Positions 4,104 through 50,042 of a DNA stretch of 64,000 nt are shown in pieces (position 1 is the first letter of the stretch; every line of letters begins with the position of its first letter). The notes under the pieces were generated by a model. That model was not told the DNA's origin, searched no databases, and saw nothing but the letters and a program-made list of their open reading frames with translations. A program made the position numbers and the translations under genes. The stretch is from an uncultured Acidobacteriota bacterium (GTDB lineage Bacteria; Acidobacteriota; Thermoanaerobaculia; UBA5066; Gp7-AA6): the NCBI GenBank assembly GCA_963823185.1, contig CAWGKP010000008.1, forward strand, positions 677,590-741,589, in the 5' to 3' direction.

Positions 4104-4973
4104 CTACGCCGAGCGGCGGGCGTCCCAGAGGAAGCGCAGGCAGCGCGCGAGCGTGGCCTTCATTTCCGAGCGCTCCACGACGAAGTCGAGCATGCCGTGC
4201 TCGAGGAGGAACTCCGCCCTCTGGAAGCCGTCCGGCAGGGTCTGGCGGATCGTCTGCTCGATGACCCGCGGACCCGCGAAACAGATGAGCGCGCCGGGCT
4301 CCGCGACGTTGAGGTCGCCGAGCATCGCGAAGGACGCGGTGACGCCGCCCGTCGTCGGGTCGGTCATGACCGAGATGTAGGGGACGGCCGCCTCCGACAG
4401 GCGCGACAGGGCGGCGGCGATCTTGCCCATCTGCATGAGCGAGAGGATGCCCTCCTGCATCCGTGCGCCGCCCGAGGTCGAGACGAGGATGAGCGGCCGG
4501 CGCTCGGCGAGCGCCCGCTCGGCGGCGCGGGTCACCTTCTCGCCGACGACGGACCCCATCGAGCCGCCGAGAAAGAAGAACTCCATCGCGCCGATCAGCA
4601 CCGGGATGCCGTCGAGCGTCCCCGAGCCGATCATGATCGCGTCGGACGTGCCGATCGACTCCTCGTACTCCGCGAGGCGGTCGCGATAGCGCTTCGTGTC
4701 GCGGAAACGCAGCGGGTCCGTCGAGCGAAGCTCCGTCTCGAGCTCCGTGTACTGCTCGGCGTCGAAGAGCATCCGCAGGCGCTCGGCCGCCGACAGCCGG
4801 AAGTGGAAGCCGCACTTGGGGCAGATCTTGTAGTTCCGCGCGAGCTCCTTGTTGTAGAGGATCTGCCGGCAGCTGTCGCACTTGACCCAGAGGCCCTCCG
4901 GCACCTTGCTCGAGCGGCGCTCCCGCGGCTCGCGCGGCTCTTTCGGCTCGCGGACTTTTCGGAACCAGGCCAT
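4104..4973 (-). CDS. accD: acetyl-CoA carboxylase carboxyltransferase subunit beta
   Basis: N-terminal zinc ribbon CDSCRQILY...CPKCGFHFR followed by a carboxyltransferase domain (GGSMGSVVGEK, GGARMQEG). Confidence 0.95.
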   Translation of the reverse strand: MAWFRKVREPKEPREPRERRSSKVPEGLWVKCDSCRQILYNKELARNYKICPKCGFHFRLSAAERLRMLFDAEQYTELETELRSTDPLRFRDTKRYRDRLAEYEESIGTSDAIMIGSGTLDGIPVLIGAMEFFFLGGSMGSVVGEKVTRAAERALAERRPLILVSTSGGARMQEGILSLMQMGKIAAALSRLSEAAVPYISVMTDPTTGGVTASFAMLGDLNVAEPGALICFAGPRVIEQTIRQTLPDGFQRAEFLLEHGMLDFVVERSEMKATLARCLRFLWDARRSA

Positions 4974-5023
4974 GGCGAAGGGCGAATGCTAACAGCCGTC
5001 GCAACTCACTGAAATAGAGAGGC

Positions 5024-5833
5024 TTATGGCTCCAGCGGCGGCCGCTCGGCCAGGGCCGCGGCTTCCAGCCGCGCGGCGCCCGGCCGGAACTCGACGTCGA
5101 AGGCCCGGCGCAGGTTCCCCGCGGTCAGGACCTCGCCCGGCGGACCCGCCGCGATCGCGCGCCCGTGCCGGAGAAGCAGGACGTGGTCGGCGATCCGGGC
5201 GGCGAGATCCACCTCGTGGGTCACGAGGAGCACGGTCAGCCGCGACCCGCTTTGCCGCCGCCGCAGGACGTCCAGGAACTCCAGGCGGTGGCGCGGGTCG
5301 AGCCCGGCCGTCGGCTCGTCGAGGAGCCAGATCTCCGCCTCCTGGGCCACCGCGCGCGCGAGGAACACGCGGCGCGTCTCGCCTCCGGAAAGAGCCGAGG
5401 CGTCCCGCTCCGCGAGATCCAGGACGTCGCAAGCCTTCATCGCGTCGAGCGCGCGGGCGCGGTCCTCGGCGGAATCGGCCGAGAATCCGGGGGCATGAGG
5501 CGCGCGGCCCTGGAGCACCAGGTCGAGGGCGCGGATCGGGAAGACGAGGTCCACGCTCTGCGGCACGTACGCGATCCGGCGCGCGGTTTCCCGGCGCGGG
5601 CGCGCGAGCAGCGGCGCGCCGTCGAGCAGGACCTCTCCCCCGGCGGGAGGCCGGATGCGCGCGAGGACCTTCAGGAGCGTGGACTTGCCGGAGCCGTTCT
5701 CGCCGAGGACCGCGACGATGCATCCGGCCGGAATCGCGGCGTCGAGTCCCGACAGCGCCTCCGTGCGGCCGTAGAGCGCCCGGAGACCACGCGTCTCGAG
5801 CCGGAGCGCTCCGGCATTCGCGTCAGTTCTCAC
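5024..5833 (-). CDS. ABC transporter ATP-binding protein (iron-siderophore/cobalamin FecE/BtuD type)
   Basis: Walker A GENGSGKST, signature LSGGETRR, Walker B IWLLDEPT. It overlaps the permease gene end. Confidence 0.9.
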   Translation of the reverse strand: MRTDANAGALRLETRGLRALYGRTEALSGLDAAIPAGCIVAVLGENGSGKSTLLKVLARIRPPAGGEVLLDGAPLLARPRRETARRIAYVPQSVDLVFPIRALDLVLQGRAPHAPGFSADSAEDRARALDAMKACDVLDLAERDASALSGGETRRVFLARAVAQEAEIWLLDEPTAGLDPRHRLEFLDVLRRRQSGSRLTVLLVTHEVDLAARIADHVLLLRHGRAIAAGPPGEVLTAGNLRRAFDVEFRPGAARLEAAALAERPPLEP

Positions 5834-6806
5834 GGAGCAGCATCCAGGCGAAGAGGGGCGCGCCCACGGTGGCCGTGACGGCGCCGATCGGCAGCTCCGC
5901 CGGCGCGAAGACCGCGCGCGACAGCGCGTCCGCGGCGACGAGCAGGGCCGCGCCGCTCACGGCGCAGAGCGGCAGGAGGCGCCGCTGGTCGTTTCCCGCG
6001 ACGGCGCGCACCGCGTGCGGCACGAGCAATCCCACGAACCCGATGATGCCGGCGAAGGCCACGGCGGCGCCGGTCAGGAGCGACGACGCCAGGAAGACGT
6101 GGCGTTTCGCGCGTTCGGTGTCGACGCCGAGCGCCGCGGCGCTGTCCTCGCCGACGGCGAGCAGGTTCAGGCGCGCCGCGTAGACGAGGAGCACGACGGC
6201 GCCCGCCGCGGCCCACGGCAGGAGCGCCGCGACCTTCCCGAACGAAGCGTCCGCGAGGCTCCCCATCATCCAGAAGAGCATCGTCCGGGCGGCGGAGGCC
6301 GAGGCGATCGAGAACACGCCGAGAAGGAGCGCGGAGAAGAACGCGTTGGCGATCAGGCCCGAGAGGAGAAGCCGCTGGAGGTCGAGACGGCCGCCGCGAC
6401 GCGCCAGCGCCGCCACCGCGAGGGACGACGCCGCCGCGCCGACGAAGGCGGCGCCCGGGGAGAGGAGCGGCGAGATTCCGGCGAGCGACGCGAGCGCCGC
6501 GCCGGCCGCCGCGCCTCCCGACGTGCCGATGAGGAACGGGTCGGCGAGCGGGTTCTTGAGCAGCGCCTGCATCGCCGCGCCGGAGAGCGCCAGTGCCGCG
6601 CCCACGAGGCCGGCGAGCGCCACGCGCGGCAGGCGGATCGACGCCACGAGCCGCGCCGTCTCCCCTTCCGCTCCCGAACCCGACCAGAGCGCGGGGAGCG
6701 ACAGGCGGACGCCGCCGACGAGGATCCCCAGCAGGCATGCTCCGGCGAGCAGCGCGAACGCCATGGCGAACGGGTGGCGCGTGCGCGGGCCCGTGCGCGC
6801 GGTCAC
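5823..6806 (-). CDS. FecCD/BtuC-family ABC transporter permease
   Basis: Polytopic protein with typical FecCD stretches (LLSGLIANAFFSAL, GIIGFVGLLVPH). The track ORF 5823..7151 is over-extended. The in-frame GTG at 6806 overlaps the upstream stop (GTGA). An alternative ATG lies at 6764. Confidence 0.85.
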   Translation of the reverse strand: MTARTGPRTRHPFAMAFALLAGACLLGILVGGVRLSLPALWSGSGAEGETARLVASIRLPRVALAGLVGAALALSGAAMQALLKNPLADPFLIGTSGGAAAGAALASLAGISPLLSPGAAFVGAAASSLAVAALARRGGRLDLQRLLLSGLIANAFFSALLLGVFSIASASAARTMLFWMMGSLADASFGKVAALLPWAAAGAVVLLVYAARLNLLAVGEDSAAALGVDTERAKRHVFLASSLLTGAAVAFAGIIGFVGLLVPHAVRAVAGNDQRRLLPLCAVSGAALLVAADALSRAVFAPAELPIGAVTATVGAPLFAWMLLREN

Positions 6807-7561
6807 GGCGCCTTCTCCCAGGCCTCCGGATGGAGACCGCGTGCGAGCGTCTCGAGCGCGCCGAAGACGCGCGGTCCGGGCCGCGACAGCTCGTCGTCCG
6901 GGACGCGGAGGACGCGGGCGGTCGCCGCGGCGCCGCGGGAGAGAACCCCCGAGGCCCGCGCCTTCTCGAACGCGGGCCGCGCATCCGGCGAGTCGGGCAG
7001 CACGAGGACGTCGACGGGCGCGGTCGCGAGGAACTCCGCCGAAAGGACCGGCCAGCCGCCGCGCCCCGCGGCGAGATTCCGCGCCCCGGCTTCTTCGAGC
7101 ACGTCGGACAGGAACGTGCCCGCGCCCGCGGCCTGCGGCGGATCGGGCCACACGAGCAGCAGCGCGGCCGGGCGCGGCCGTCCCGCGACCCGGCGCCGCA
7201 CCTGCCGGCGGCGTCGCGAGAGCTCCTCGACGAGCCGGCGCGCCTCGTCGCCCTTCCCCAGCCGTTCGCCGACCTGCCGGATCCCCGCGAGGACGGCGTC
7301 GAGCGACTCGCCGGAGACCGCGAGCACCGGGACGCCGGCCGCCTCGAGCGCCTGGACCGCGCCGCGCGGATTTCCGTCGCGGCTCGCGAGAACGAGATCG
7401 GGGTGGAGCGCGACGATCGCCTCGGCGCTCGCGTCGAGTCCGCCCACGCGCGGCAGCTTGCGGGCCTCGGGAGGAAAGTCGGAGAAGTCCGAGACGGCGA
7501 TCAGGCGATCTCCGGCACCGACCGCGAAGACGATCTCGGTGAGGTTGGGAGCGAGCGCCAC
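6803..7561 (-). CDS. ABC transporter periplasmic substrate-binding protein (BtuF/FhuD-like, cluster A)
   Basis: ALAPNLTEIVFAVGAGDRLIAVSDFSDFP resembles the start of mature BtuF-like proteins. The first canonical start (GTG 7561) leaves no signal peptide, although an in-frame upstream stretch encodes one (see findings). The N-terminus is therefore uncertain. Confidence 0.8.
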   Translation of the reverse strand: MALAPNLTEIVFAVGAGDRLIAVSDFSDFPPEARKLPRVGGLDASAEAIVALHPDLVLASRDGNPRGAVQALEAAGVPVLAVSGESLDAVLAGIRQVGERLGKGDEARRLVEELSRRRRQVRRRVAGRPRPAALLLVWPDPPQAAGAGTFLSDVLEEAGARNLAAGRGGWPVLSAEFLATAPVDVLVLPDSPDARPAFEKARASGVLSRGAAATARVLRVPDDELSRPGPRVFGALETLARGLHPEAWEKAP

Positions 7562-7658
7562 AACGCGCCGGGGGACGTCACCCGGCGGCCTCGCGCCCGG
7601 CGCGCCGCGGCAAGACAGAGCCGCGGCCGCGGCGAGGGCCGCGGCGGCGCAGAGCCGG

Positions 7659-7883
7659 CTAGCCTTGAGTCTCGGCTTCTTCGAGGTCGTTCGCGATTCC
7701 GAGTCGCATGCAGGCGGCGTCGTACATCTGTCGCGCCGCCTTCTGGGCGTTCTGAAGCTCGGCCAGCCGGTCCTTGACCTTCGCCAGCTCCTCCTGAATC
7801 AGGACTTCCAGATCGTTGATCTCCCGCTTGGTCACCGCGAGAGTGTTCTCGTAGAACTTCTTCTGCTCCGACGACAGGCTCAT
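7659..7883 (-). CDS. small coiled-coil protein, unknown function
   Basis: 74-aa ORF preceded by GGAGGGG 5 nt upstream of the ATG. It has a heptad-like charged sequence (REINDLEVLIQEELAKVKDRLAELQNAQK) and sits between the kinase and importer genes on the same strand. Confidence 0.55.
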   Translation of the reverse strand: MSLSSEQKKFYENTLAVTKREINDLEVLIQEELAKVKDRLAELQNAQKAARQMYDAACMRLGIANDLEEAETQG

Positions 7884-7932
7884 TTCCCCTCCTGCAGGCG
7901 AGCCGAGGCTGGCCGCAATCCTACCGCGAGAA

Positions 7933-10836
7933 TCAGGGTTTCACGTCCACGACGACCGGACGCCACATCTTCACGGGAACTCCGTTCTTCGTGGCCGGCC
8001 GGAATTTCGTCTTCTGCACCGCGTCGACGACCGCCTCGTTGACGCCGCTCTTCGGCGCCACGCCCTGCTGGAGCCTCGCCTCGGCGACGTGTCCGTCTTC
8101 GTCCACGAGGACGAGCACCACGACGCGCCCCGCGCCGATGCCGGCCTGCCTCGCGATCGGCGGATACGTGATCTTCGGTTTGGCGAGGAGCTCCGGCTCG
8201 ACGACCCCGGGCCCGGGGCCCACGAGGTCGCCGCGGTGGACCTCGTTGCTCTCGGCGACCGCCGGCGCGGCACGGGGCGGCGCCGGAACCGCTGTCGGCG
8301 GGGCGGGCGGCTCGGTCGGCTCCTCGGTGGGAACGACCGCAGCGGCGGGCGCCGCCGTCGGAACGACGGGCTCCGCCGTGGGCACGGGCGACGGAACCGT
8401 CTCGACTCCAGAAGGCGCGGCCGCCGGGGCGGCCGCCGTAGCCGCCTGCTTCTTCTCGGCCGCAAGCGCCTTCTGCATCTCTTTCTTCTTCTGGGCCATC
8501 TGGCGCTGGACCTCTTCTTCGACCTTCTTCGCGTCGATCGTGGGCGCGGCGGTCGGCACGACGACGGGCGCCGGAATCGGGGTGGCCGGCGCGGGCGTGG
8601 GCCGGGGGGCGACGGCCGGCGCCGACTTGCGCGTCGTCAACCAGAAGATGCCGGCGCCGAGCAAGAGCACGGCGGCGGCGATCGTCGCGATCAGCGCCGT
8701 CCGGCTCTTCGCCTCGGACTCGATTTGACGCGACGCGTAGGAGCCGAAGACGCCGGGAGCCGTGCCCTGGCGGGGAGGCGCCGCCGCGGCCGCGGGCTTC
8801 TCCGCGTGCGCCGGAGCCGGAGTCGCCGCCTCGGGCGCGGGAGCCTTGGAAACGGTCCCCGTGCGGCGCGCGACCGGCGCCGCCTTGGCGCGCCGCGGCT
8901 TCTGCTCGACCTCGGCTTCGGGCACCGCGCGCGCGGCCTCGCGCGCCCTGGCCTCGGCCACGGCGGACTCTTCCGCCTGGAGCCGGTGGAGGAAGATCGC
9001 GAGGTCGGCGCTGCCCGGCGCGGGCGAGTACGAGTACAGAACCTGCTCGAGGTCGCGCAGCAGATCCGACGCGTTCGCATAGCGGTCCTCGGGCTCCTTC
9101 GCGAGCGCGCGGAGCACGACGGCGTCGAGCGCCTTCGGCACGTCGGGGTTGGCGGCGGAGGGCGGCTCGGCGCTGGCCTTGCGGACGTTCTCGAGAACCG
9201 TCAGGTCCGAGTCGCCGTGGAAGAGCTTCTGCTCCGTCAGCAGCTCGTAGAGGACGCTGCCGAGGGAGAAGAGATCGCTGCGGCGGTCGATCGGCTTTCC
9301 CCACGCCTGCTCGGGGGACATGTACTGGATCTTGCCTTTGAGCGCGCCCGACTCCGTCTGCGAGACCTTGGACGCCGCCTTCGCGATCCCGAAGTCGCAG
9401 AGCTTGATGTCGCCCTCGTACGAAATCAGGATGTTCTGCGGCGAGACGTCGCGGTGCACGATGTGCAGGTCGCGTCCCTCCGCGTCGCGGCGCCGGTGCG
9501 CGTAGTCGAGCGCCGAGGCGACCTTGGACGCGATGTACACCGCGAGCGGCACCGGCAGGGGCGTGCCGAGCTCGCGCGCCGAGTCGAGGATCGCGCGCAG
9601 GTCGCGCCCCTCGACGTGTTCCATCGCGATGAAGTAACCGCCGCCCTCGATCTTTCCGAGGTCGTAGATGTGGACGATGTTCGGGTGATTCAGCTGCGCC
9701 GCGAGCTTGGCCTCGTCGGCGAACATCGTGATGAATCCTTCGTTGTCGGCGAGGTGCGGAAGGATCTTCTTGATCGCGACGATCTTCTGGAAGCCCTCGA
9801 CGCCGCTGCGCCGCGCGCGGTAGAGCTCGGCCATGCCGCCCGACGCGATCCGCTCCAGCATCTCGTACTGCCCGTAGTGGTCGGAAACCGAGACCCCCTC
9901 GCCGGCGGCCGGTGCGGGAGCGGGGGCCGGGGCCGGCGGCGCGGGCGCGGGCTTCGGCGCGGCGGCCGGCGGCGGAGACACCGGCTTCGAGGCAGCCGGA
10001 GGCGGAGGAGGCGGAGGCGCCGCGGGCGGCTTGGCGGCCGACAGCGGCGGCAGGGGCGTCCGATCGGCCGCCGGACGCGGCTTGGGCGGCGTCGGCAGGC
10101 CCGACAGCGTGTCGGAGATCATCCGGTCGATGTCGGCGTCGCCGGCGAACTTCTTGGTAGACGGAGGCGGAGGCGGCGCCGACGGCGCGGGAGTCTTCTC
10201 GGTCGGACGCCCGCCGAGCATTCCGGAGAGCGTCTCGCGCAGCCGCTGCTCGACGTCGCTCGACGGCGCCGCCTTCGCCGGGGCCGGAGGCGGCGTCGCT
10301 GCGGGTTTCGCGGCCGGCGCGACGGGGGCCGGAGGCCTCGCCACTTTCGCCGGCGCGTCGCCCGCGACGTCCTTCAGAACGTCGGCAAAGATGTCGGAGG
10401 CCGTCAGCTCCGGCCCGGACGGCGCCGAGGCCATCGGGATGCGAACGGTCTTCGCACCGACGTCGGTCGCATCGATCGCGGAGCGCACGGCGCTTCGGAG
10501 CGCGTCGTCCGTGAACGGCTTGACGAGGAGGTCGAACGCGCCGACCTTCTGCGCGTCGGCCTTGGGGTTGCTGCCCTTGTAGCCCGTGACCATGAGGAGG
10601 ATCGGCGGTGCCGTCGCGCCGCCCTTCCGGCGGATCTCGCGGATGACCTCTCCCGACGCGAGCCGGGGCAGCATGCCGCCGAGCACGATCGCGTCGTAGT
10701 GCGGCTGCGACGAGAAGGCCGCGAGCCCCTCCTCGCCGTCCCGCGCCACGGAGACCTGGTACTCCGCAGACAAGAGTCCCTGCAGCCGTTCCACGGAGCG
10801 CGGCTCATAGTCGATGAGAAGGACCCGTTTGGCCAT
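7933..10836 (-). CDS. multidomain Ser/Thr protein kinase: pseudo-receiver + Hanks kinase + TM + TonB C-terminal domain
   Basis: 967 aa. The N-terminus is CheY-like but lacks the acceptor Asp. Kinase motifs are GGMAELY, VAIKK, HRDVSPQN, DFG and SPEQ. One hydrophobic helix (TALIATIAAAVLLLGAGIFWLTT) is followed by a Pro-rich spacer and a TonB_C-like end (ITYPPIARQAGIGAGRVVVLVLVDEDGHV...KNGVPVKMW). Confidence 0.85.
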   Translation of the reverse strand: MAKRVLLIDYEPRSVERLQGLLSAEYQVSVARDGEEGLAAFSSQPHYDAIVLGGMLPRLASGEVIREIRRKGGATAPPILLMVTGYKGSNPKADAQKVGAFDLLVKPFTDDALRSAVRSAIDATDVGAKTVRIPMASAPSGPELTASDIFADVLKDVAGDAPAKVARPPAPVAPAAKPAATPPPAPAKAAPSSDVEQRLRETLSGMLGGRPTEKTPAPSAPPPPPSTKKFAGDADIDRMISDTLSGLPTPPKPRPAADRTPLPPLSAAKPPAAPPPPPPPAASKPVSPPPAAAPKPAPAPPAPAPAPAPAAGEGVSVSDHYGQYEMLERIASGGMAELYRARRSGVEGFQKIVAIKKILPHLADNEGFITMFADEAKLAAQLNHPNIVHIYDLGKIEGGGYFIAMEHVEGRDLRAILDSARELGTPLPVPLAVYIASKVASALDYAHRRRDAEGRDLHIVHRDVSPQNILISYEGDIKLCDFGIAKAASKVSQTESGALKGKIQYMSPEQAWGKPIDRRSDLFSLGSVLYELLTEQKLFHGDSDLTVLENVRKASAEPPSAANPDVPKALDAVVLRALAKEPEDRYANASDLLRDLEQVLYSYSPAPGSADLAIFLHRLQAEESAVAEARAREAARAVPEAEVEQKPRRAKAAPVARRTGTVSKAPAPEAATPAPAHAEKPAAAAAPPRQGTAPGVFGSYASRQIESEAKSRTALIATIAAAVLLLGAGIFWLTTRKSAPAVAPRPTPAPATPIPAPVVVPTAAPTIDAKKVEEEVQRQMAQKKKEMQKALAAEKKQAATAAAPAAAPSGVETVPSPVPTAEPVVPTAAPAAAVVPTEEPTEPPAPPTAVPAPPRAAPAVAESNEVHRGDLVGPGPGVVEPELLAKPKITYPPIARQAGIGAGRVVVLVLVDEDGHVAEARLQQGVAPKSGVNEAVVDAVQKTKFRPATKNGVPVKMWRPVVVDVKP

Positions 10837-10992
10837 CTGCGAAGTGTCGATTTGCTGGAAAGTTCGTTGTCATGATACAGGACAATCGCTCGACTGTCAG
10901 GTCCGGCGCTCTCTTTCCGCCCGAAGCGCCGCGCGATCGAGCGGGCCGCCCGCACATATAATCCCCGCCGAAAAAGACGAACGGAGTCTCCG

Positions 10993-11724
10993 ATGTCGGG
11001 TCATAGCAAGTGGGCAACGATCAAGCACAAGAAGGGCGCCGCCGACGCCAAGCGCGGGCGCCTCTTCACCAAGCTCATCAAGGAAATCACCATGGCGGCG
11101 CGGCTCGGGGGCGGCGATCCGGGAGGCAATCCGCGCCTGCGCAAGGCGGTGGACGACGCGAAGGCCGTCAACATGCCGGCCGACAACATCAAGCGCGCGA
11201 TCCAGCGCGGCACGGGCGAGCTGCCCGGCGTCACCTACGAGGAAATCACGTTCGAGGGATACGGCCCGGGCGGCACCGCCGTGCTCATCGAGGCGATGAC
11301 GGACAACAAGAACCGCACGCTTCCCGAGATTCGCACCATCTTCTCGAAGAACGGCGGCAACCTCGGCGAGTCGGGCTCGGTCCGATTCCTCTTCCAGAAG
11401 AAGGGCTACATCACCGTCGAGAAGGACAAGGCGACCGAAGATCAGGTCATGGAGGCGGCGATCGAGGCCGGCGCCGACGACGCGCGCGTCGCCGGCGAGG
11501 TGCATGAGATTCTGTGCGCGCCGGAGGTCCTCGCCGAGGTCAAGGCCAAGCTCGAGGCGAAGGGCCTCCCGCTGACCGTCGCCGAAGTGGACATGCTGCC
11601 CACCACCGAGGTCGCGCTCGATCAGCGCAAAGCCGATCAGATGGTGCGCCTCATGGAGGCGCTCGAAGACCATGAAGACGTGCAGCACGTCTGGGCGAAT
11701 TTCGATTTCGAGGAGTCGGCGTAG
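10993..11724 (+). CDS. yebC: YebC/PmpR family DNA-binding transcriptional regulator
   Basis: [32 protein letters not shown] is the hallmark N-terminus; 243 aa. Confidence 0.95.
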
Positions 11725-11857: not shown

Positions 11858-12337
11858 GTGAGAATCCTCGGCCTCGATCCCGGCACGGCGGCGACGGGCT
11901 ACGGCGTGGTCCTCTTCGAGGCGGGAAGCCTGCATCTCGAGCGGTGCGGCGTGTGGCGTCCTCCCGCGGGCGCCGGGCTGCCCGAGAAGCTCCAGATGCT
12001 CTTCGGCGCGGCCCGAGCGCTCATGGCCGAATGCCGCCCGGCGGCCGTGTCGGTCGAGACGGTGTTCGCGGCCAAGAACATCGCCTCGACGCTCAAGCTC
12101 GCCCACGCCCGCGGCGTGCTCCTCGCGGCCGCCGCCGAGAACGGCCTTCCGGTGTTCGAGTACGAGCCCCGGCTGGTGAAGAAGGCCCTCGTCGGATACG
12201 GGCAGGCCGAGAAAACGCAGGTCCGGGCGATGGTCCTGTCGCTGCTCGCCCGGCAGAGATCGCGGATCCCGCTCGACGCGGCCGACGCTCTGGCCGTCGC
12301 CATCTGCCACGTCCACGCCTCTCCCGCCGTCCGCTAG
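11858..12337 (+). CDS. ruvC: crossover junction endodeoxyribonuclease RuvC
   Basis: RILGLDPGTAATGYGVV, VETVFAAKN, and the yebC-ruvC synteny; GTG start. Confidence 0.93.
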   Translation: MRILGLDPGTAATGYGVVLFEAGSLHLERCGVWRPPAGAGLPEKLQMLFGAARALMAECRPAAVSVETVFAAKNIASTLKLAHARGVLLAAAAENGLPVFEYEPRLVKKALVGYGQAEKTQVRAMVLSLLARQRSRIPLDAADALAVAICHVHASPAVR

Positions 12338-12391
12338 GAGACCGGCGTCCGGGGCCGCCGGCCCCTTCCTTGCTATCATTCACGCCAAGGC

Positions 12392-13228
12392 ATGTCGTTT
12401 CAGGGATCCATCCAGGAGCTTCCGGTCCCCGACATCATTCAGCTCGTCTCGGTCTCGGGCAAAACCGGAATGTTCACACTCGTGCGCGGCGCCGAGCGGG
12501 GATTCATCTATCTGAAGAATGGACAGATGATCCACGCCAAGGTCGGCGAGATGACGGGCGAGGAGGCGGTCTACGCCCTCGCCATCTGGTCCACCGGCGA
12601 GTTCCAGTTCACGCAGGGCGAGGAGCCCGACACCACCACGATCGACAAGCCCAATACGAGCCTGCTCATGGAGTCGGCCCGGCGGCTGGACGAGTGGAAG
12701 GTCCTGTCGCGCAAGATCCCCGGGCTCGACTACGTTCCCGTTCTCCAGCCCCGCAATCTCGCCGAGCCGGTCACGCTCTCGCCGCCCGAGTGGAACCTCG
12801 TCATCCACATCGACGGCAAGCGGTCACTCGAGGATCTCTCGCGCGCGATGGGCTCGTCTTCGTTCGACACCGCGAAGGTTCTCTACGGGCTCATCACGGC
12901 GGGACTCGCGGAGATGCGTTCGAAGGAGACCGCGCGCCCGACCTCGGCGCCGGCGCCCGCCGCGATGCTGGGCGACGAGAAGAAGATCCTGATGATTCTC
13001 TGTACACGCGTGAAGCAGGAGGCGGAAGTGGCGCTCGGAGAGTCGAACCTGCCGAACCTCGAGCGGCCCTACCGGCAGGCGCTCTCGGAGATCGACCAGG
13101 GCCGGGGCGTCGAGGCGGTGCGGGACCTGATCCGGCAGACCGAGAAGGCGATCTCCGCCCTGCGCGGGCCCGCGCGGGTCAAGGCCTTCCAGGACAAGAT
13201 GTCCCTGGTGATGCAGCCAAAAGTTTAG
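12392..13228 (+). CDS. DUF4388 (PATAN-like) domain protein
   Basis: The N-terminal pattern GSIQELPVPDIIQLVSVSGKTGMFTL...IYLKNGQMIHA...GEEAVYALAIWSTGEFQF matches my memory of DUF4388. The C-terminal half is unassigned. Confidence 0.6.
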   Translation: MSFQGSIQELPVPDIIQLVSVSGKTGMFTLVRGAERGFIYLKNGQMIHAKVGEMTGEEAVYALAIWSTGEFQFTQGEEPDTTTIDKPNTSLLMESARRLDEWKVLSRKIPGLDYVPVLQPRNLAEPVTLSPPEWNLVIHIDGKRSLEDLSRAMGSSSFDTAKVLYGLITAGLAEMRSKETARPTSAPAPAAMLGDEKKILMILCTRVKQEAEVALGESNLPNLERPYRQALSEIDQGRGVEAVRDLIRQTEKAISALRGPARVKAFQDKMSLVMQPKV

Positions 13229-13440: not shown

Positions 13441-13541
13441 CAGTCCGGGGAGGGGGAACGCTCCAAACCCCAAAAAACCGAGGAAAATCGACTGCTCAGC
13501 CTTTGACCAGCCCCCTAAGGGCCTGAGATAGATAAAGTTGT

Positions 13542-13570
13542 TTGGCATTAGGCCATTTTTGACTTATTCT
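13542..13570 (+). promoter_or_regulatory. candidate sigma70-type promoter for the OmpA-family gene
   Basis: TTGGCA-N17-TATTCT in an AT-rich patch about 40 nt upstream of the ATG at 13610. AAAGGAG lies 6 nt before the start. Confidence 0.45.
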
Positions 13571-13609
13571 ATTAGGCAGTCCCTGGTCGTCCAATCGAAA
13601 GGAGATTGC

Positions 13610-14989
13610 ATGAAGGCAAAGCGGACCGCGCTCCTCGTGGTGCTGGCGTGCCTGATCGGCGCCGCGGCACCCGCGCAGGTCGCCTTGAACAATCAGGGCG
13701 ACGTCGGCCTGTTCACGATCCCGACGGCCGACCAGCCGCTGCCCGGACACTTCACGCTTGGCGCCTATGGATGGCTCGATCAGATGGTTGCCGGAAACCT
13801 CCCTGGAAACGACACGCTCTTCCGCGACCGCACCTACCGCCACGCTGCCGGCGCGTTCTCGCTCGGCTTCGGCTTCAACAAGTACTGGTCGATCTTCGCG
13901 AGCTTCGGCGGCGAGAACTACCACAGTCGCGGCGGCTGGCAGGGCGGCGCCATCAACGGCACGCTCCTTCCGGCGCCCTTCTCCTCCAACGAGGCGATGA
14001 AGGTCCGCGTCGGCACGAAGGTCACGTTGTATTCGGAGAACGACGCGAACTTCCGCGTCGGCCTCTGGCTCGCCGCCCACGCTCCGGTCAACAACGCGAC
14101 GCTCGAGATCAACGGCGTCCCGTCGGACGAGCAGATCAACTCGCGCCGCACCGACTGGGAGTGGGGCGGCGTCATCACCAGGGGCATTTTCACGGGTATG
14201 GTGTCGTACACGCTCGCGGGCCATCAGGATTTCGACGTGCGCCCGGCCAACCAGCTGCGGTTTGCCGCCGGCGTGGACCTGCCGCTGGCGGGACTGCCGA
14301 TTCACATCATCAGCGAGATCGACCGCACGATCTACGACGGCGGCGACTTTCCCGAGCCCGACCAGTCCCTCCTGAATGCCGGCGCCCGCTTCTGGCTCGG
14401 CGATTCCGGCGTCGCGGTCTCCGGCGCGTTCAACGTCAACATGGATCTCCTCTTCAAGCACGGCAACAACCCGACGCCCTTCGGTGGAATCCTCGGCATC
14501 ACCTACGCCGCGTGGCCGCCGCCTCCGCCGCCGCCGGTGGTCGTGCCGCCCCCGGCCCCAGCGACTCCGGTGGTCGTCGAGGAGTCGAAGGCCGCGCCGG
14601 CCCCGGCGCCCGCGCCTCCCCCGCCGGCCGCTCCCAAGAAGACGACCGACGAGATCTTCTTCGACGCCGGCAGCGCCCGTCTGACCAACATCGCCAAGGC
14701 CATGCTCGACGGCATCGCCCTGCGCATGAAGAACGACCTCAACTCGACGGCCGTCATCACCGGCTATACCGACAACTCGGGCAAGAAGGAGGACGCCAAC
14801 GTGGCCATATCCGCCAAGCGGGCGGAGGCCGCCAAGGAGTACCTCGTCACCCGGCACGGGATCGACCCCAACCGGATCAGCACGGCCGCCAAGGGCTCCT
14901 CGGAGGCGGGTTACGACAACGCGACGCCGGAGGGACGGGCCAAGAACCGCCGGGCCGTAATTGTGGTAACACTCGTCTCTGGAGCGTGA
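13610..14989 (+). CDS. OmpA-family outer-membrane protein (N-terminal barrel-like domain, Pro-rich linker, OmpA_C peptidoglycan-binding domain)
   Basis: Signal peptide MKAKRTALLVVLACLIGAAAPAQV, a PPPPPPVVVPPPAP linker, and a C-terminal GYTDNSG...ISAKRAEAAKEYL...GRAKNRRAVIV. The track ORF start 13538 is replaced by the ATG at 13610, which has an RBS. Confidence 0.85.
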   Translation: MKAKRTALLVVLACLIGAAAPAQVALNNQGDVGLFTIPTADQPLPGHFTLGAYGWLDQMVAGNLPGNDTLFRDRTYRHAAGAFSLGFGFNKYWSIFASFGGENYHSRGGWQGGAINGTLLPAPFSSNEAMKVRVGTKVTLYSENDANFRVGLWLAAHAPVNNATLEINGVPSDEQINSRRTDWEWGGVITRGIFTGMVSYTLAGHQDFDVRPANQLRFAAGVDLPLAGLPIHIISEIDRTIYDGGDFPEPDQSLLNAGARFWLGDSGVAVSGAFNVNMDLLFKHGNNPTPFGGILGITYAAWPPPPPPPVVVPPPAPATPVVVEESKAAPAPAPAPPPPAAPKKTTDEIFFDAGSARLTNIAKAMLDGIALRMKNDLNSTAVITGYTDNSGKKEDANVAISAKRAEAAKEYLVTRHGIDPNRISTAAKGSSEAGYDNATPEGRAKNRRAVIVVTLVSGA

Positions 14990-38567: not shown

Positions 38568-39436
38568 GCGCCGAACTGCCAGTCCGCAAGACCTACAAAT
38601 TGTTCATCGGCGGCGAGATGGTGCGCACCGAGTCAGGCCGCTCGGACCCGATCTACTCGCCGAAGCCGACGAAGGCGCTCCTCGCCAACGTCTCGCGCGG
38701 GTCGCGCAAGGACGTGCGCGACGCCGTCGGCAAGGCGCGCGGCGCCCAGGAGGGCTGGGCGAAGAAGACCGGATACCTGCGCGGGCAGATCCTCTACCGC
38801 ATGGCGGAGATGCTCGAAGGACGGGCCGAGTCGTTCGAGAAGATCCTGCGCGAGAGCCGCGGCCTCTCCCCCGCCGCCGCGCGCCGCGAGGTGCGCGCGT
38901 CGATCGACCGGATCGTTCATTACGCTGGCTGGTCCGACAAGTACGGCGCGCTCCTCTCGACGGTCAATCCGGTGGCGTCGTCGTACTACGACTTCTCGGT
39001 GCCGGAGCCCACGGGCGTGGTCGGCGTCGTCGCGCCGGAGACTCCCGAGCTCCTCGGCCTCGTGACGTACCTCGCGCCCGTGATCGTCTCCGGCAACGCG
39101 GCGGTCGTGCTCCTCTCCGAGCGGCATCCGCTCGCCGGGCTCGAGCTCGGCGAGGTCCTCGCGACCTCCGACCTGCCGGCCGGCGTCGCCAACCTGATCT
39201 CGGGCCGCAAGGAAGAGCTCGTGCCGCACCTCGCGCGCCACATGGACGTCAACGCGATCTGCGACGCGGGCGGCGACGCGGCGCTGTCGAAGGCGATCGC
39301 GCAGGACGCCGCCGTCAACGTCAAGCGCGTGAAGCGCTATGCGCCGCCCGATCTCTTCGCCGAGAAGGCGCAAGGCCTCGACGTCATCGAAGCCTTCATC
39401 GAGACCAAGACCACCTGGCACCCGGTCGGGGTGTAG
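38564..39436 (+). CDS. aldehyde dehydrogenase-like protein, N-terminal half only (no catalytic Cys/Glu region)
   Basis: The ATG at 38564 overlaps the ALDH stop (ATGA). YKLFIGGEMV...GWAKKTGYLRGQILYRMAEML...EPTGVVGVV follow ALDH N-terminal patterns, but the protein ends (290 aa) before the catalytic domain. Confidence 0.7.
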   Translation: MSAELPVRKTYKLFIGGEMVRTESGRSDPIYSPKPTKALLANVSRGSRKDVRDAVGKARGAQEGWAKKTGYLRGQILYRMAEMLEGRAESFEKILRESRGLSPAAARREVRASIDRIVHYAGWSDKYGALLSTVNPVASSYYDFSVPEPTGVVGVVAPETPELLGLVTYLAPVIVSGNAAVVLLSERHPLAGLELGEVLATSDLPAGVANLISGRKEELVPHLARHMDVNAICDAGGDAALSKAIAQDAAVNVKRVKRYAPPDLFAEKAQGLDVIEAFIETKTTWHPVGV

Positions 39437-39449
39437 CTCGAGGGAACCC

Positions 39450-41945
39450 ATGAGGCGCGTGGCGTTTCCGGCGCTCGCCCTGGCCCTGGCGGTCGCCGGC
39501 GCTCCCGACGCACCCGCGACCAATCTCTGGACCGGCACCGGTCCCGAGGGCGGTCTCGTCACGGCGGTCGCGATCGATCCGACCAATCCTCTGATCGTCT
39601 ACGCCGGCTTCGAGGGCGGCGGCAGCGGCGGCTCGACACAATTTCCGGGCGGGATCTTCAAATCGACCGACGGCGGCCAAACCTGGAAGCCCGCTCTCTC
39701 CGGCCTGAGCGGAAGTCCCGTGCGCTCCATTGCGATTGATCCCGCGAATAGCGACACCATTTACGCCGGAACAGAGGGCGGGATTTACAAGACCGAATCC
39801 GGGGGAGACAGCTGGTCGCTCATGGACTCCCCTCCCGGTACTCCCTTACTCGCGTATGACGTCGTGATTCATCCGGCAGTCCACACGACCCTCTTCGCCG
39901 CCGCAAGCGATGGCATTGCTCTCAGTGCCAATTCCGGACTGGGTTGGACGCTGTGCGCATCGGTGACGACGGACACGCGGACGGTCGCGTTCGATCCGGC
40001 GTCGCCGTCCATCCTTCACACGATGGGCTACCTCGACCAGATGTTCACGAGCACTGACGGCGGTCTCAACTGGAGCCCGTCGGCGACCAACCAGACCCGG
40101 ATCAAGGTCTGGAAGCTCGTCATCGATCCCACCGATTCCACACACCTCTGGGCGGCGACCGATGGCGGCCTGTTTACGAGCATCGACGGCGGGGCGACGT
40201 TTGCTATGGTCGCCGGCGGTCTTCCGGCCGTGCGCGTTCTGTCGCTCGTCTTGCGCGGCTCGCGCCTGTACGCCGGGACGGCAGCGGCCGGCGTCTTCGT
40301 CAGCGAGAACGGCGGCGTCGACTGGGCGCCGGCGAACACGGGGCTCGGGACGCACGTCATCCGTTCGATCGCGGTCTCCCCCCTAGACGACGTGGACGCA
40401 TTCGCCGGAACGGACGCGGGAGTGTCTCACACGGTCGACGCAGGCGCGCACTGGACGCCGAGGAATTCCGGGATCGTCCGCACCTGGGTGACGACGCTGA
40501 CCGCCGATCCGAGGGTCACCGGAGCCTTCGACGCCGGAACGACGAGCGGTCTCTTTCGCACGACAGATCGGGGTGCGACCTGGACCCGATTGGACGCGTT
40601 TCCCGAAGGCTACCCGACCGCCACAACGATCGACCCCACGGACTCGCTCGTCCTCTACGCGGCCACCTCCAAGCGGCTTCCGGACGACCACTCCGAATCT
40701 CGCATTTTCCGGAGCATCGACGGAGGCGCGACGTGGCAGGAGACGGGATTCCCCGCGACCACGACTGCGATCGTCGATTCTCTCATCGTCGATCCGACGG
40801 CGCCGGCGACGGTCTACGCGGCCGGCCGCGGAATGAACGTGATCAAGTCGATCGACTCGGGAACGACCTGGGACCCGGCGAGCACCGGCCTCACGGATGA
40901 TCTCATCCTCTCCCTCGTTCTCGACCAGTCGCACCCGGGAACGCTTTACGCGGGAACCGTCGACCACCTCGTCTTCAAGACAACCGACGGCGCCGCGCAC
41001 TGGAACGAGCTTCCCGGCAGTCCGTTCCGCGCGACCGCACTGGCGATCGCTACCGGCGGCGTTCTCTACGCCGGAAGCAGTGGCATCTTTCGGAGCTCCG
41101 ACGGCGGCGCGTCCTGGCAGCCACGGTGCGCCGGGTTGTGCTCGCTCTACCCCCTGACCGTGCAGGCGATCGCCGTCGACCCGCGTCGGCCGTCGAGCCT
41201 CTACGTCTCGGCGACGGGAGGCAATCCCGACGGTTCCGACGGCGGAGTGTTCGAAAGCCTCGATGGCGCCGCGAGCTGGCATCCACGCAACGCCGGCTTG
41301 GCAACGTACTTCACGGGACAGCTGTCGATCGACTCCCGGGCCCCGTTCGTCCTCGTCGGCACGGTCGGCGGCGCGGGCGTTTTCTCGTCGCTCATTCCCT
41401 ACGCCGACGTCTCCACCACGAGCCCTTTCGCCAACGCGATCGATGCGGTCACTCGCAATGGCATCACGCTCGGATGCGGACAGGGCAATTACTGTCCGGA
41501 CGACCTCGTCACGCGCGCCCAGATGGCGATCTTCATTCTTCGCGGCGAGCACGGCGGCGCCTATCAGCCGCCTCCGGCGACGGGGACGGTCTTCACCGAC
41601 GTGCCTTCGACGGCGTTCGGCGCCCCTTGGATCGAGCAGCTCGCGGCCGAGAAGATCTCCACCGGCTGCGGCAACGGCAACTACTGCCCCGACGACTCCG
41701 TCGCGCGCGACCAGATGGCCGTCTTCCTTCTGCGAGGAAAGAACGGCGGCGCCTACAAACCGCCGGCCGCGACGGGCGGCGTCTTCGGCGACGTGACGCC
41801 GGCGACGTACCTCGCCGCCTGGATCGAGCAAATGCCCGCACAAGGCATCAGCTCCGGCTGCGGCGGCGGCAACTACTGCCCGGCCGGCCTCGTGACGCGT
41901 GCCCAGATGGCCGCGTTCCTGACGCGCGCGTTCGGGCTGCAGTAG
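39450..41945 (+). CDS. secreted BNR/Asp-box repeat beta-propeller protein with three C-terminal SLH-like repeats
   Basis: Signal peptide MRRVAFPALALALAVAGAPDA. About 13 SxDxGxTW-type boxes (STDGGQTWKP, STDGGLNWSP, SIDGGATWQE, SSDGGASWQP ...). Three ~60-aa C-terminal repeats carry F.DV....W/AI......GI..GCG.GNYCP...VTRAQMA.FL.R. Confidence 0.75.
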   Translation: MRRVAFPALALALAVAGAPDAPATNLWTGTGPEGGLVTAVAIDPTNPLIVYAGFEGGGSGGSTQFPGGIFKSTDGGQTWKPALSGLSGSPVRSIAIDPANSDTIYAGTEGGIYKTESGGDSWSLMDSPPGTPLLAYDVVIHPAVHTTLFAAASDGIALSANSGLGWTLCASVTTDTRTVAFDPASPSILHTMGYLDQMFTSTDGGLNWSPSATNQTRIKVWKLVIDPTDSTHLWAATDGGLFTSIDGGATFAMVAGGLPAVRVLSLVLRGSRLYAGTAAAGVFVSENGGVDWAPANTGLGTHVIRSIAVSPLDDVDAFAGTDAGVSHTVDAGAHWTPRNSGIVRTWVTTLTADPRVTGAFDAGTTSGLFRTTDRGATWTRLDAFPEGYPTATTIDPTDSLVLYAATSKRLPDDHSESRIFRSIDGGATWQETGFPATTTAIVDSLIVDPTAPATVYAAGRGMNVIKSIDSGTTWDPASTGLTDDLILSLVLDQSHPGTLYAGTVDHLVFKTTDGAAHWNELPGSPFRATALAIATGGVLYAGSSGIFRSSDGGASWQPRCAGLCSLYPLTVQAIAVDPRRPSSLYVSATGGNPDGSDGGVFESLDGAASWHPRNAGLATYFTGQLSIDSRAPFVLVGTVGGAGVFSSLIPYADVSTTSPFANAIDAVTRNGITLGCGQGNYCPDDLVTRAQMAIFILRGEHGGAYQPPPATGTVFTDVPSTAFGAPWIEQLAAEKISTGCGNGNYCPDDSVARDQMAVFLLRGKNGGAYKPPAATGGVFGDVTPATYLAAWIEQMPAQGISSGCGGGNYCPAGLVTRAQMAAFLTRAFGLQ

Positions 41946-48981: not shown

Positions 48982-49464
<483 letters not shown>

Positions 49465-49544: not shown

Positions 49545-50042
49545 TTACTGCTGGGTACCCTCAGGCCACTGGATGAACGTTCCGTCGGCGTACACGATGT
49601 CGTCGTTGAAGTCGGTCGTCGTGCCGCAAAACAGGCCGCCCGGGGAACCGTCGCGACCGCCGGACTCGATCCGGTAGTCGTTGTTGTTGTTTCCCGTGGC
49701 ATAGCGGAAGAATCGGCCCCAGCCGTCCTGACGCGGAACCTGGGCGATGTAGGTCGGCTGCAGGTTGGTGAACGACGTCAGAGCGAGGTCGCCGCCGGGG
49801 AAGTTCGCCGTGAAGAGACCCGGGTTGCAGTTCCCGGCCGCCGCGTTCGGGTAGTAGTTGTTGTCCACGGCATACGACTCGATCGCCGTGGCGAGCGCGC
49901 GCATGTCGGACATGGACCGCTTCTGCTTGCCGCGCTGCACCGCGTTGAGCAGGTTGGGGATCGCGATCGCGGCCAAGATGCCGATGATCGCGATGACGAT
50001 CAAGAGCTCGATCAGTGTGAAACCAGCTTCCCGCTTCTTCAT
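49545..50042 (-). CDS. prepilin-type N-terminal cleavage/methylation protein, GspG-like pseudopilin/pilin (promoter-proximal paralog)
   Basis: MKKREAG|FTLIELLIVIAIIGILAAIAIPNLLNAVQRGKQKRSM. GGAGG lies 5 nt upstream of the ATG. The C-terminal CGTTTDFNDDIVY.DGTFIQWPEGTQQ is shared with the paralog. Confidence 0.9.
   Translation of the reverse strand: MKKREAGFTLIELLIVIAIIGILAAIAIPNLLNAVQRGKQKRSMSDMRALATAIESYAVDNNYYPNAAAGNCNPGLFTANFPGGDLALTSFTNLQPTYIAQVPRQDGWGRFFRYATGNNNNDYRIESGGRDGSPGGLFCGTTTDFNDDIVYADGTFIQWPEGTQQ

Follow-up and report, generated by a model that had tools for sequence, protein, structure and literature searches.

A TonB C-terminal domain on a conserved, predicted receptor Ser/Thr kinase of Thermoanaerobaculia-type Acidobacteriota

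What is a TonB C-terminal domain doing at the end of a eukaryotic-like protein kinase? The question is raised by a 967 aa open reading frame (ORF) on contig CAWGKP010000008.1 (assembly GCA_963823185.1) of an uncultured Acidobacteriota bacterium. We analyzed a 64,000 nt stretch of this contig, positions 677,590 to 741,589, referred to here as the window; all coordinates count from its first nucleotide. The ORF encodes, in order, a pseudo-receiver, a linker, a Hanks-type Ser/Thr kinase, one transmembrane (TM) helix, a Pro/Ala periplasmic spacer and a TonB C-terminal domain. The predicted product, conserved in Thermoanaerobaculia-type Acidobacteriota, is a bitopic receptor Ser/Thr kinase of the inner membrane. 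As the kinase needs ATP, the N-terminal 712 aa are placed in the cytoplasm and the TonB domain in the periplasm. A first-pass annotation, made from the sequence alone, had proposed this topology and had put the gene at the head of a BtuFCD-type cluster, and both proposals are supported by the analysis below. The stretch has been seen only in soil and wetland metagenome DNA, and no RNA runs containing it were found. The parts of the gene are as follows.

7933..10836, minus strand: the whole ORF, a 967 aa bitopic receptor kinase (ATG start; Pfam, NCBIfam, homologues)
10459..10836, minus strand: aspartate-less pseudo-receiver, aa 1-126 (Pfam, PleD alignment, family columns, model)
9880..10458, minus strand: Pro/Ala-rich cytoplasmic linker, aa 127-319 (composition, conserved motifs, modeled short helices)
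10375..10407, minus strand: linker motif LTASDIFADVL, aa 144-154, invariant or nearly so in both subfamilies
10222..10245, minus strand: linker motif RLRETLSG, aa 198-205, likewise
10096..10134, minus strand: linker motif DIDRMISDTLSGL, aa 235-247, likewise
9040..9879, minus strand: Hanks-type Ser/Thr kinase domain, aa 320-599 (Pfam, PknB match, family columns)
8968..9039, minus strand: conserved post-kinase extension LYSYSPAPGSADLAIFLHRLQAEE, aa 600-623 (conservation; a helix is modeled at 611-636)
8701..8967, minus strand: Ala/Arg/Glu-rich cytoplasmic juxtamembrane linker, aa 624-712 (composition, model)
8632..8700, minus strand: single TM helix, aa 713-735 (hydrophobicity, model, family alignment)
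8236..8631, minus strand: Pro/Ala/Val-rich periplasmic spacer, aa 736-867, with one conserved charged helix at about 769-799
7936..8235, minus strand: TonB C-terminal domain, aa 868-967, with a YP motif at 891-892 (Pfam, NCBIfam, model, PDB search)

The receiver, kinase and TonB_C assignments, previously made by eye, all score above the Pfam gathering cut-offs: Response_reg (PF00072) at aa 5-118 with 45.6 bits against 30.2, Pkinase (PF00069) at aa 324-587 with 128 bits against 31.7, and TonB_C (PF03544) at aa 888-960 with 43.8 bits against 24.6. The NCBIfam model tonB_Cterm (TIGR01352) gives 43.8 against a cut-off of 27.1. The motifs quoted in the first-pass annotation are all where they should be, both in the receiver (LLIDYEP 6-12, AIVLGGMLP 49-57, LLMVTG 80-85, LVKPF 104-108) and in the kinase (GGMAELY 333-339, VAIKK 353-357, HRDVSPQN 461-468, DFG 481-483, SPEQ 507-510). 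A homologue search returned at least 120 full-length proteins of 908-1001 aa at 51-92% identity, and all but one (856 aa) carry the same Pfam domains. Where source names are given they read 'TonB family protein', and any taxon in them is Acidobacteriota or Thermoanaerobaculia. A scan of species-representative genomes located at least 410 related Acidobacteriota loci, mostly in Thermoanaerobaculia; the best 80 all belong to that lineage. On this pattern of conservation, the kinase-TonB fusion is real and under selection. The metagenome-assembled genome cluster3_bin.176 holds two full-length copies of the kinase on different contigs (L010, L041), which could be a strain mixture or a true paralogue.

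The full-length AlphaFold model is poor (mean predicted local distance difference test score, pLDDT, of 58; below 50 in the kinase N-lobe) and unusable for inter-domain contacts. From it we trusted the receiver and TonB domains only, and the TonB domain was remodeled alone. With 43 sequences the isolated domain reached a pLDDT of 93.1. Its best PDB match by Foldseek is 6i97_D, the TonB C-terminal domain bound to FoxA (E 2.8e-5, TM-score 0.78, root-mean-square deviation 2.2 Å). The matches ranked 1 to 17 are all C-terminal domains of TonB, FusB or HasB, and TolA domain III is a much weaker match. In sequence, the domain shares 34-41% identity (E 1e-12 to 1e-14) with the corresponding domain of ordinary TonB from related acidobacterial genomes. 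The TonB_C-like domain of the first-pass annotation is therefore borne out by Pfam, NCBIfam, the domain model and identity to canonical TonB, and by these measures it is a genuine TonB C-terminal domain.

The membrane segment does not resemble that of an energy-transducing TonB. There is one hydrophobic peak only, at aa 711-735 (Kyte-Doolittle 2.43), and it is modeled as a helix. No His was found in this helix in any of about 40 family members inspected, nor was an SxxxH motif, and the TM sequence is unconserved between subfamilies; a single TM helix lacking the His motif was what had been expected. Ordinary acidobacterial TonB proteins (two examples, from loci L084 and L086) are 238-242 aa long, with a short N-terminal tail and a TM His. 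The earlier remark that no exbBD is nearby also holds: tblastn found no ExbB or ExbD homologues in the window, and there were none within 10 kb in syntenic loci. Because the cytoplasmic part is 712 aa long, the TM helix is His-less and unconserved, and ExbB/ExbD are absent from the window, the TonB domain is unlikely to act here as an energy transducer.

Does the TonB domain occur in other signaling proteins? With the TonB domain as sole query, a word-index homologue search yielded no architectures, only short pieces of proteins from this family. A TonB_C profile search matched 86,576 representative proteins. Among the Pfam-scanned proteins with a single TonB_C, those with enough length to include a cytoplasmic part are kinase fusions of the present family, and the shorter ones show TonB_C alone. 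The other architectures include BlaR1-type M56 peptidases, which carry 3-6 TonB_C repeats, and a protein with an N-terminal kinase and three such repeats, and the clusters of both kinds that carry a source name are from Acidobacteriota. On these architectures, TonB_C is a recurrent periplasmic module of membrane signal transducers. The M56 proteins and the kinase with three repeats (cluster P0332, whose source name is also Acidobacteriota) are uncharacterized. They share with the window protein the use of TonB_C as the periplasmic module of a membrane transducer, and differ from it in having other output modules, repeated TonB_C domains and no pseudo-receiver. The P0332 gene (locus L085, 2776-4950) is a second, independent kinase-TonB architecture; its neighbors are genes for a MacB-like permease and an M48 peptidase, one on each side, and no s74-like gene (see below) adjoins it.

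The kinase domain is closest to PknB, StkP and the PASTA kinases. It matches PknB with an E value of 1.5e-49 and 38% identity, but falls below the cut-off of the NCBIfam PknB_PASTA model (306.6 against 450). Across 120 homologues the invariant residues include G333/G334, K356, E375, H461-R462-D463, N468, D481-F-G, S507-P-E and R585. T494 and S496 of the activation loop are invariant as well, and align to T171 and T173 of PknB. The domain had been described as a complete Ser/Thr kinase. This is right for all other catalytic residues, but the catalytic-loop Lys (HRDxKxxN; K140 in PknB, K168 in PKA) is replaced by S465 in HRDVSPQN, and this Ser is invariant in every subfamily, long variants included. 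No paper mentioning an HRDVSP motif was found in the literature searched. The domain is followed by a conserved extension with the family pattern Y...P.P.SAD.AI..H.

The receiver domain is modeled with a pLDDT of about 85 and has a TM-score of 0.84 to the receivers of CheY4 and PhoP. Its active-site quintet reads D9, Y10, G53, T84 and K106. When aligned to PleD, the domain has G53 where PleD has its phospho-acceptor, D53, and Y10 where PleD has the second acidic residue, which confirms the hand alignment of the first-pass annotation (a DY acidic pair, Gly at the phospho-acceptor position, Thr and Lys retained). In 120 homologues the phospho-acceptor column holds Ser (75), Ala (32) or Gly (12) and never Asp, and it is Ser in the sister clade. 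The acidic pair is D/E9 with an invariant Y10, T/S84 is kept, and position 106, a Lys in the window, is Arg in 80 of the 120. Neither the phospho-acceptor Asp nor the DD pair of a canonical, phosphorylatable receiver was found. Most of the studied aspartate-less receivers (ALRs) regulate DNA-binding outputs. Under the published definition of this class, a receiver fold without the phospho-acceptor Asp and one residue of the acidic pair (PMC12632262), the alignment makes this domain a pseudo-receiver of the ALR type.

The linker between receiver and kinase had been described as about 190 aa of Pro/Ala-rich sequence. Its length (193 aa) and composition (27% Pro, 22% Ala) agree, but it is not featureless. 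Three motifs recur across subfamilies with the patterns LTxSDIFxDVL, RLR(D/E)TLSG and D..(M)ISDTLSGL, and short helices are modeled at 146-158, 192-207 and 233-244. The sequence (D/E)TLSG occurs twice, at aa 201-205 and 242-246 (window 10096-10245), is kept in both subfamilies, and each time stands after a short predicted helix. The two copies look like a duplicated docking or phosphorylation motif.

The kinase gene is the first of five on the same strand, whose ends overlap or nearly touch. The others are a gene for a 74 aa protein, here called s74, and the three genes of a type II ATP-binding cassette (ABC) importer.

10872..10900, minus strand: sigma-70-like promoter candidate CTGACA-17-TATCAT, 36 bp upstream of the kinase ATG (consensus match only)
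7659..7883, minus strand: s74, a 74 aa helical/coiled-coil protein without signal peptide, starting 49 bp after the kinase stop
6803..7561, minus strand: binding protein of the type II ABC importer (Peripla_BP_2, 91.1 bits; BtuF among the best matches)
5823..6806, minus strand: FecCD-family permease (279.9 bits; BtuC the best match), with a GTG start that overlaps the binding-protein stop
5024..5833, minus strand: importer ABC ATPase (ABC_tran, 104 bits), with a start that overlaps the permease stop

The promoter candidate is the sole promoter-like site in 4800..11200, where shuffled sequences average 0.1.

s74 is the most faithful companion of the kinase. It lies within 400 bp downstream in 53 of 53 testable loci and is present in every distant lineage examined, at 72-74% identity where measured. 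No Pfam family matches it. Across 70 orthologues there is little or no variation at 27 of the 74 positions (T14, T18 and C58 among them), and the protein ends in an acidic tail. We found 1195 clusters of about 74 aa, and all taxon-bearing source names among them are Thermoanaerobaculia or Acidobacteriota. Because the lineages that lack the importer keep both kinase and s74, the invariant module, as judged from gene content, is the kinase plus s74, and does not include the importer. Strictly co-inherited with the kinase, s74 is a candidate substrate or adaptor of it, and the two make up a compact, testable module. Residues 12-19 of s74 form a conserved E-x-T-L-x-V-T-(K/R), which is Ton-box-like (the Ton box of BtuB is DTLVVTA). 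We considered s74 as the ligand of the TonB domain on account of this T-L-x-V-T and rejected it, since a protein without a signal peptide would be cytoplasmic. The two Thr of the motif may be phospho-sites instead.

The importer is, by its domains, a type II trio whose closest named models are BtuF and BtuC, below equivalog level in both cases (101.7 against a cut-off of 234 for BtuF; 244.9 against 461 for BtuC). We found no cobalamin riboswitch, and nothing in the window attains the gathering score of any Rfam family. The first-pass annotation had the trio on the same strand after the kinase and a small ORF. The arrangement stands, but the importer is not a universal companion, as four lineages lack it. 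The start of the binding protein is peculiar. A stretch resembling a signal peptide or lipoprotein signal (KASRLCAAAALAAAAALSC, window 7564-7666, minus strand) shares the reading frame of the binding protein and runs over the 3' end of s74. There is no ATG, GTG or TTG between the upstream stop at 7801 and the GTG at 7561, and the same is true of a relative (L004). Since no canonical start exists upstream of 7561, the longest canonical ORF is left without an export signal. The cause may be a start codon of non-canonical type, some unusual coupling with s74, or a defect.

Neighborhoods were compared across the family. Close relatives are syntenic, with genes for the OmpA-family protein, the PATAN protein, RuvC and YebC on one side and kinase-s74-importer-accD-folC on the other. 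In the sister clade (37-47% identity) the flanks differ, and the order kinase, s74, binding protein, FecCD permease and ABC ATPase is intact. Overall the importer lies within 5 kb downstream of the kinase in 61 of 63 sampled loci, across two clades with differing upstream synteny. We therefore rejected, for these two main clades, the idea that its adjacency is mere class-wide synteny: the upstream synteny is lost while kinase-s74-importer stays intact. The kinase-importer link is nonetheless weakened by the four importer-less lineages. In these (L056; P0421, 958 aa; and the long variants P0437 and P0464, 1197-1297 aa) accD directly follows s74. A neighbor-joining tree of kinase domains has importer-bearing and importer-less lineages in both main clades, which requires two gains of the importer or at least three losses.

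Two further kinds of Ton-pathway gene are found beside the kinase. Every sister-clade locus with sufficient flanking sequence has rho and a TonB-dependent-receptor-like gene upstream; the receptor domains are CarboxypepD_reg, Plug and barrel only, with no STN. The receptors at the rho slot (L059-L083, at about 5-8 kb in locus coordinates) are 25-30% identical to each other in many loci, and rho is more than 80% identical. By these identities the slot is conserved, and its occupant is fast-diverging or replaced. In the long-variant clade an ExbB-ExbD-ExbD-TonB cluster sits between ruvC and the PATAN gene, adjoining the kinase (L084 5696-7978; L086 5757-8201). In the window, ruvC and the PATAN gene are 55 bp apart (12337-12392). 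Ton-pathway genes thus adjoin family members in three forms and three lineages: the importer, the receptor-like gene and ExbB-ExbD-ExbD-TonB.

How might these parts work together? We tentatively read the protein, with a probability of roughly 0.4, as a trans-envelope receptor kinase whose TonB domain docks exposed Ton boxes or another Ton-pathway partner and which signals by phosphorylation, with s74 as substrate or adaptor. The TonB domain would be the sensor, forming a beta-strand pair with the Ton boxes that ligand-loaded TonB-dependent receptors expose, possibly in competition with the cell's ordinary TonB. Docking would shift the oligomeric state or geometry of the receptor kinase, and the changed state would control trans-autophosphorylation at T494/S496 and the phosphorylation of cytoplasmic targets. 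s74, through T14/T18, would be the prime candidate among substrates or adaptors, and the pseudo-receiver and linker motifs may regulate the kinase from within the molecule or provide docking sites. The capture of nutrients at the outer membrane would be coupled by this output to import across the inner membrane or to metabolism. A sensor role is consistent with the analysis because the best structural matches are TonB C-terminal domains bound to transporters, the domain is 34-41% identical to canonical TonB of the same phylum, the TM helix is unconserved and His-less, and three kinds of Ton-pathway genes adjoin family members in three lineages. Kinases of the PknB type are regulated by dimerization. 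In E. coli, BtuB with its ligand bound exposes the Ton box, and TonB goes from dimer to monomer on binding it (PMC9853854). Given this shift, a TonB domain on a receptor kinase could turn Ton-box exposure into an oligomeric change.

Several points weigh against this proposal. Both the binding partner and the kinase activity are inferred, from sequence and models. Activity may be low or unusual given the Ser in place of the catalytic-loop Lys, and the catalytic loop offers no obvious compensating basic residue. There is no TonB-dependent receptor in the window, nor within 10 kb in close relatives. The receptor of the sister clade is on the other strand, behind rho, and its adjacency could be chance synteny, since the receptors at this slot are so divergent in many loci and such genes are abundant in Acidobacteria. 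The importer is absent in L056, P0421, P0437 and P0464, which keep kinase and s74, and the remaining neighbors are housekeeping genes (yebC, ruvC, accD, folC). Finally, being cytoplasmic, s74 is ruled out as the ligand of the TonB domain.

The readings that compete with a Ton-sensing receptor kinase differ mainly in what the TonB domain touches. It may be a tether: the protein would be an envelope or cell-cycle kinase, the diderm counterpart of PknB/StkP, in which a TonB-type domain takes the place of the PASTA repeats and contacts an envelope component (peptidoglycan, or a protein like Pal/OmpA or TolB) as an anchor or a monitor, with the importer an incidental insertion. s74 would then be a small coiled-coil adaptor or substrate like GpsB or DivIVA, which serve Gram-positive kinases. 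The invariant core of kinase plus s74 without importer fits this, as do the kinase's closeness to PknB, StkP and PASTA kinases and its conserved housekeeping and envelope neighbors (yebC-ruvC, the PATAN protein, the OmpA-family protein, FtsEX, accD, folC), although such phylum-deep synteny may say nothing about function. In addition, Myxococcus GltG and GltJ bind non-transporter periplasmic partners via TonB-like C-terminal domains (PMC11761067). The far better match to TonB than to TolA, the identity to real TonB and the Ton-pathway genes that accompany the kinase in three forms and three clades argue against a tether, which we consider unlikely. A second possibility is that the TonB domain reads the operon's own BtuF-like binding protein, loaded versus empty, and the kinase reports periplasmic substrate load; some histidine kinases and chemoreceptors sense via binding proteins. 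No other Ton-pathway component is co-encoded as often as the binding protein (61/63 loci), and, according to the account in PMC9853854, purified E. coli TonB and BtuF interact in solution in vitro (James et al., 2009). The physiological meaning of that contact is unsettled even in E. coli (PMC9853854), and four lineages keep kinase and s74 with no adjacent binding protein, so that this reading seems rather improbable.

An equally improbable reading makes the protein a true energy-transducing TonB paralogue that serves uptake for the downstream importer, with ExbB/ExbD encoded elsewhere and the pseudo-receiver and kinase as a regulatory add-on. Uptake loci commonly have a TonB-like gene at the head of a cluster for binding protein, permease and ATPase; the C-terminal domain is truly of the TonB type and follows a Pro-rich spacer, and one clade has ExbB-ExbD-ExbD-TonB beside the kinase. 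That adjacent ExbBD comes, however, with its own ordinary TonB, the window has no ExbB/ExbD, and the TM helix lacks the His/SxxxH and is unconserved between subfamilies, where canonical TonB has a TM His and a short N-terminal tail. The strong matches to PADLOC PD-T4-6 models (up to 285.7 bits) raise the question of an anti-phage defense kinase of that type. Most of these matches cover little beyond the generic Hanks core (about aa 320-605) and several run into the low-complexity linker and TM region downstream of it, the NCBIfam defense-kinase models are far below their cut-offs, and the gene holds a fixed, syntenic chromosomal position class-wide among housekeeping neighbors with nothing mobile or defense-like. 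We judge the PADLOC matches to be probably generic kinase-domain similarity and a defense role very improbable. Least probable of all is an assembly or annotation artefact fusing separate genes, which the first-pass annotation had named as a possible flaw. It is refuted by conservation: the same uninterrupted architecture recurs in at least 120 proteins of independent assemblies and at at least 410 genome loci, and conserved motifs run through the linkers.

If the Ton-sensing receptor kinase is accepted, a broader role can be imagined. TonB-dependent receptors are a main nutrient gateway of Acidobacteria. A single housekeeping Hanks kinase might use its own TonB domain to sample the Ton boxes of all ligand-loaded receptors and convert global nutrient load at the outer membrane into s74 phosphorylation that tunes import or metabolism, a third route from the outer membrane to the cytoplasm; we regard this extension as doubtful. 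To our knowledge the Ton box and signaling domain have two known uses, energy transduction by TonB-ExbBD and FecR/extracytoplasmic function (ECF) sigma signaling. A TonB C-terminal domain on a eukaryotic-like kinase would be a new coupling of outer-membrane events to cytoplasmic phosphorylation. It would also give the bacterial receptor Ser/Thr kinases a new type of sensor domain. Should the domain be only an envelope tether, the family would still be a class-wide, uncharacterized PknB-like kinase of abundant soil bacteria.

The protein shares features with several known systems. Like TonB of E. coli and P. aeruginosa it is bitopic with the N-terminus inside, has a Pro-rich periplasmic spacer and ends in a C-terminal domain of the same fold with YP (the TonB structures 6i97_D, 2grx_C and 2gsk_B are the best structural matches). 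Unlike TonB, it has a cytoplasmic part of 712 aa in place of a short tail, an unconserved TM helix without His/SxxxH, no adjacent ExbBD, and a signaling enzyme attached. With PknB, StkP and PrkC it shares the Hanks kinase, juxtamembrane linker, single TM helix, extracytoplasmic sensor and the Thr/Ser pair of the activation loop; it differs from PASTA kinases in its TonB C-terminal sensor, its N-terminal pseudo-receiver and the Ser for Lys in the catalytic loop. The GltJ and GltG proteins of Myxococcus xanthus gliding have cytoplasmic ZnR+GYF or FHA+FHA domains, a single TM helix, a disordered periplasmic segment and a TonB-like domain (PMC11135422, PMC11761067). The plan of cytoplasmic regulatory domains, TM helix, disordered segment and TonB-like C-terminal domain is the same, but their cytoplasmic domains are unrelated and include no kinase, and they are part of the Agl-Glt motor complex, genes for which were not seen here. 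The first-pass annotation had also drawn an analogy to FecR-type transducers. The logic proposed here is that of FecA-FecR-FecI, in which a bitopic inner-membrane protein relays the occupancy of an outer-membrane TonB-dependent receptor to a cytoplasmic output, but the contact would be the Ton box and the output phosphorylation. The likeness goes no further than analogy: the window protein scan gave no FecR domain match at E <= 1, there are no sigma-70 family or ECF genes within 10 kb in three loci (L001-L003), and the sister-clade receptor has no STN domain.

The architecture is visible in automatic annotation, and we found no study of it in the literature searched, in agreement with the earlier statement that no characterized example was known. 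Searches for TonB-kinase fusions and for Hanks-type kinases returned nothing relevant. Those pseudo-receiver papers that were searched for kinase and TonB terms contained neither word. The HRDVSPQN catalytic-loop variant and the pseudo-receiver-kinase fusion were likewise both absent from the literature searched.

Other features of the window are listed here.

12392..13228, plus strand: PATAN/DUF4388 protein
13538..14989, plus strand: 483 aa OmpA-family protein
39339..41945, plus strand: 868 aa ORF with a signal-peptide-like N-terminus and repeats resembling BNR or beta-propeller
48982..49464 and 49545..50042, minus strand: tandem paralogues with N-termini like those of type IV pilins or pseudopilins (GFTLIELLIVIAIIGILAAIAIPN)

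The first two form, with ruvC-yebC, a deeply conserved block opposite the kinase.

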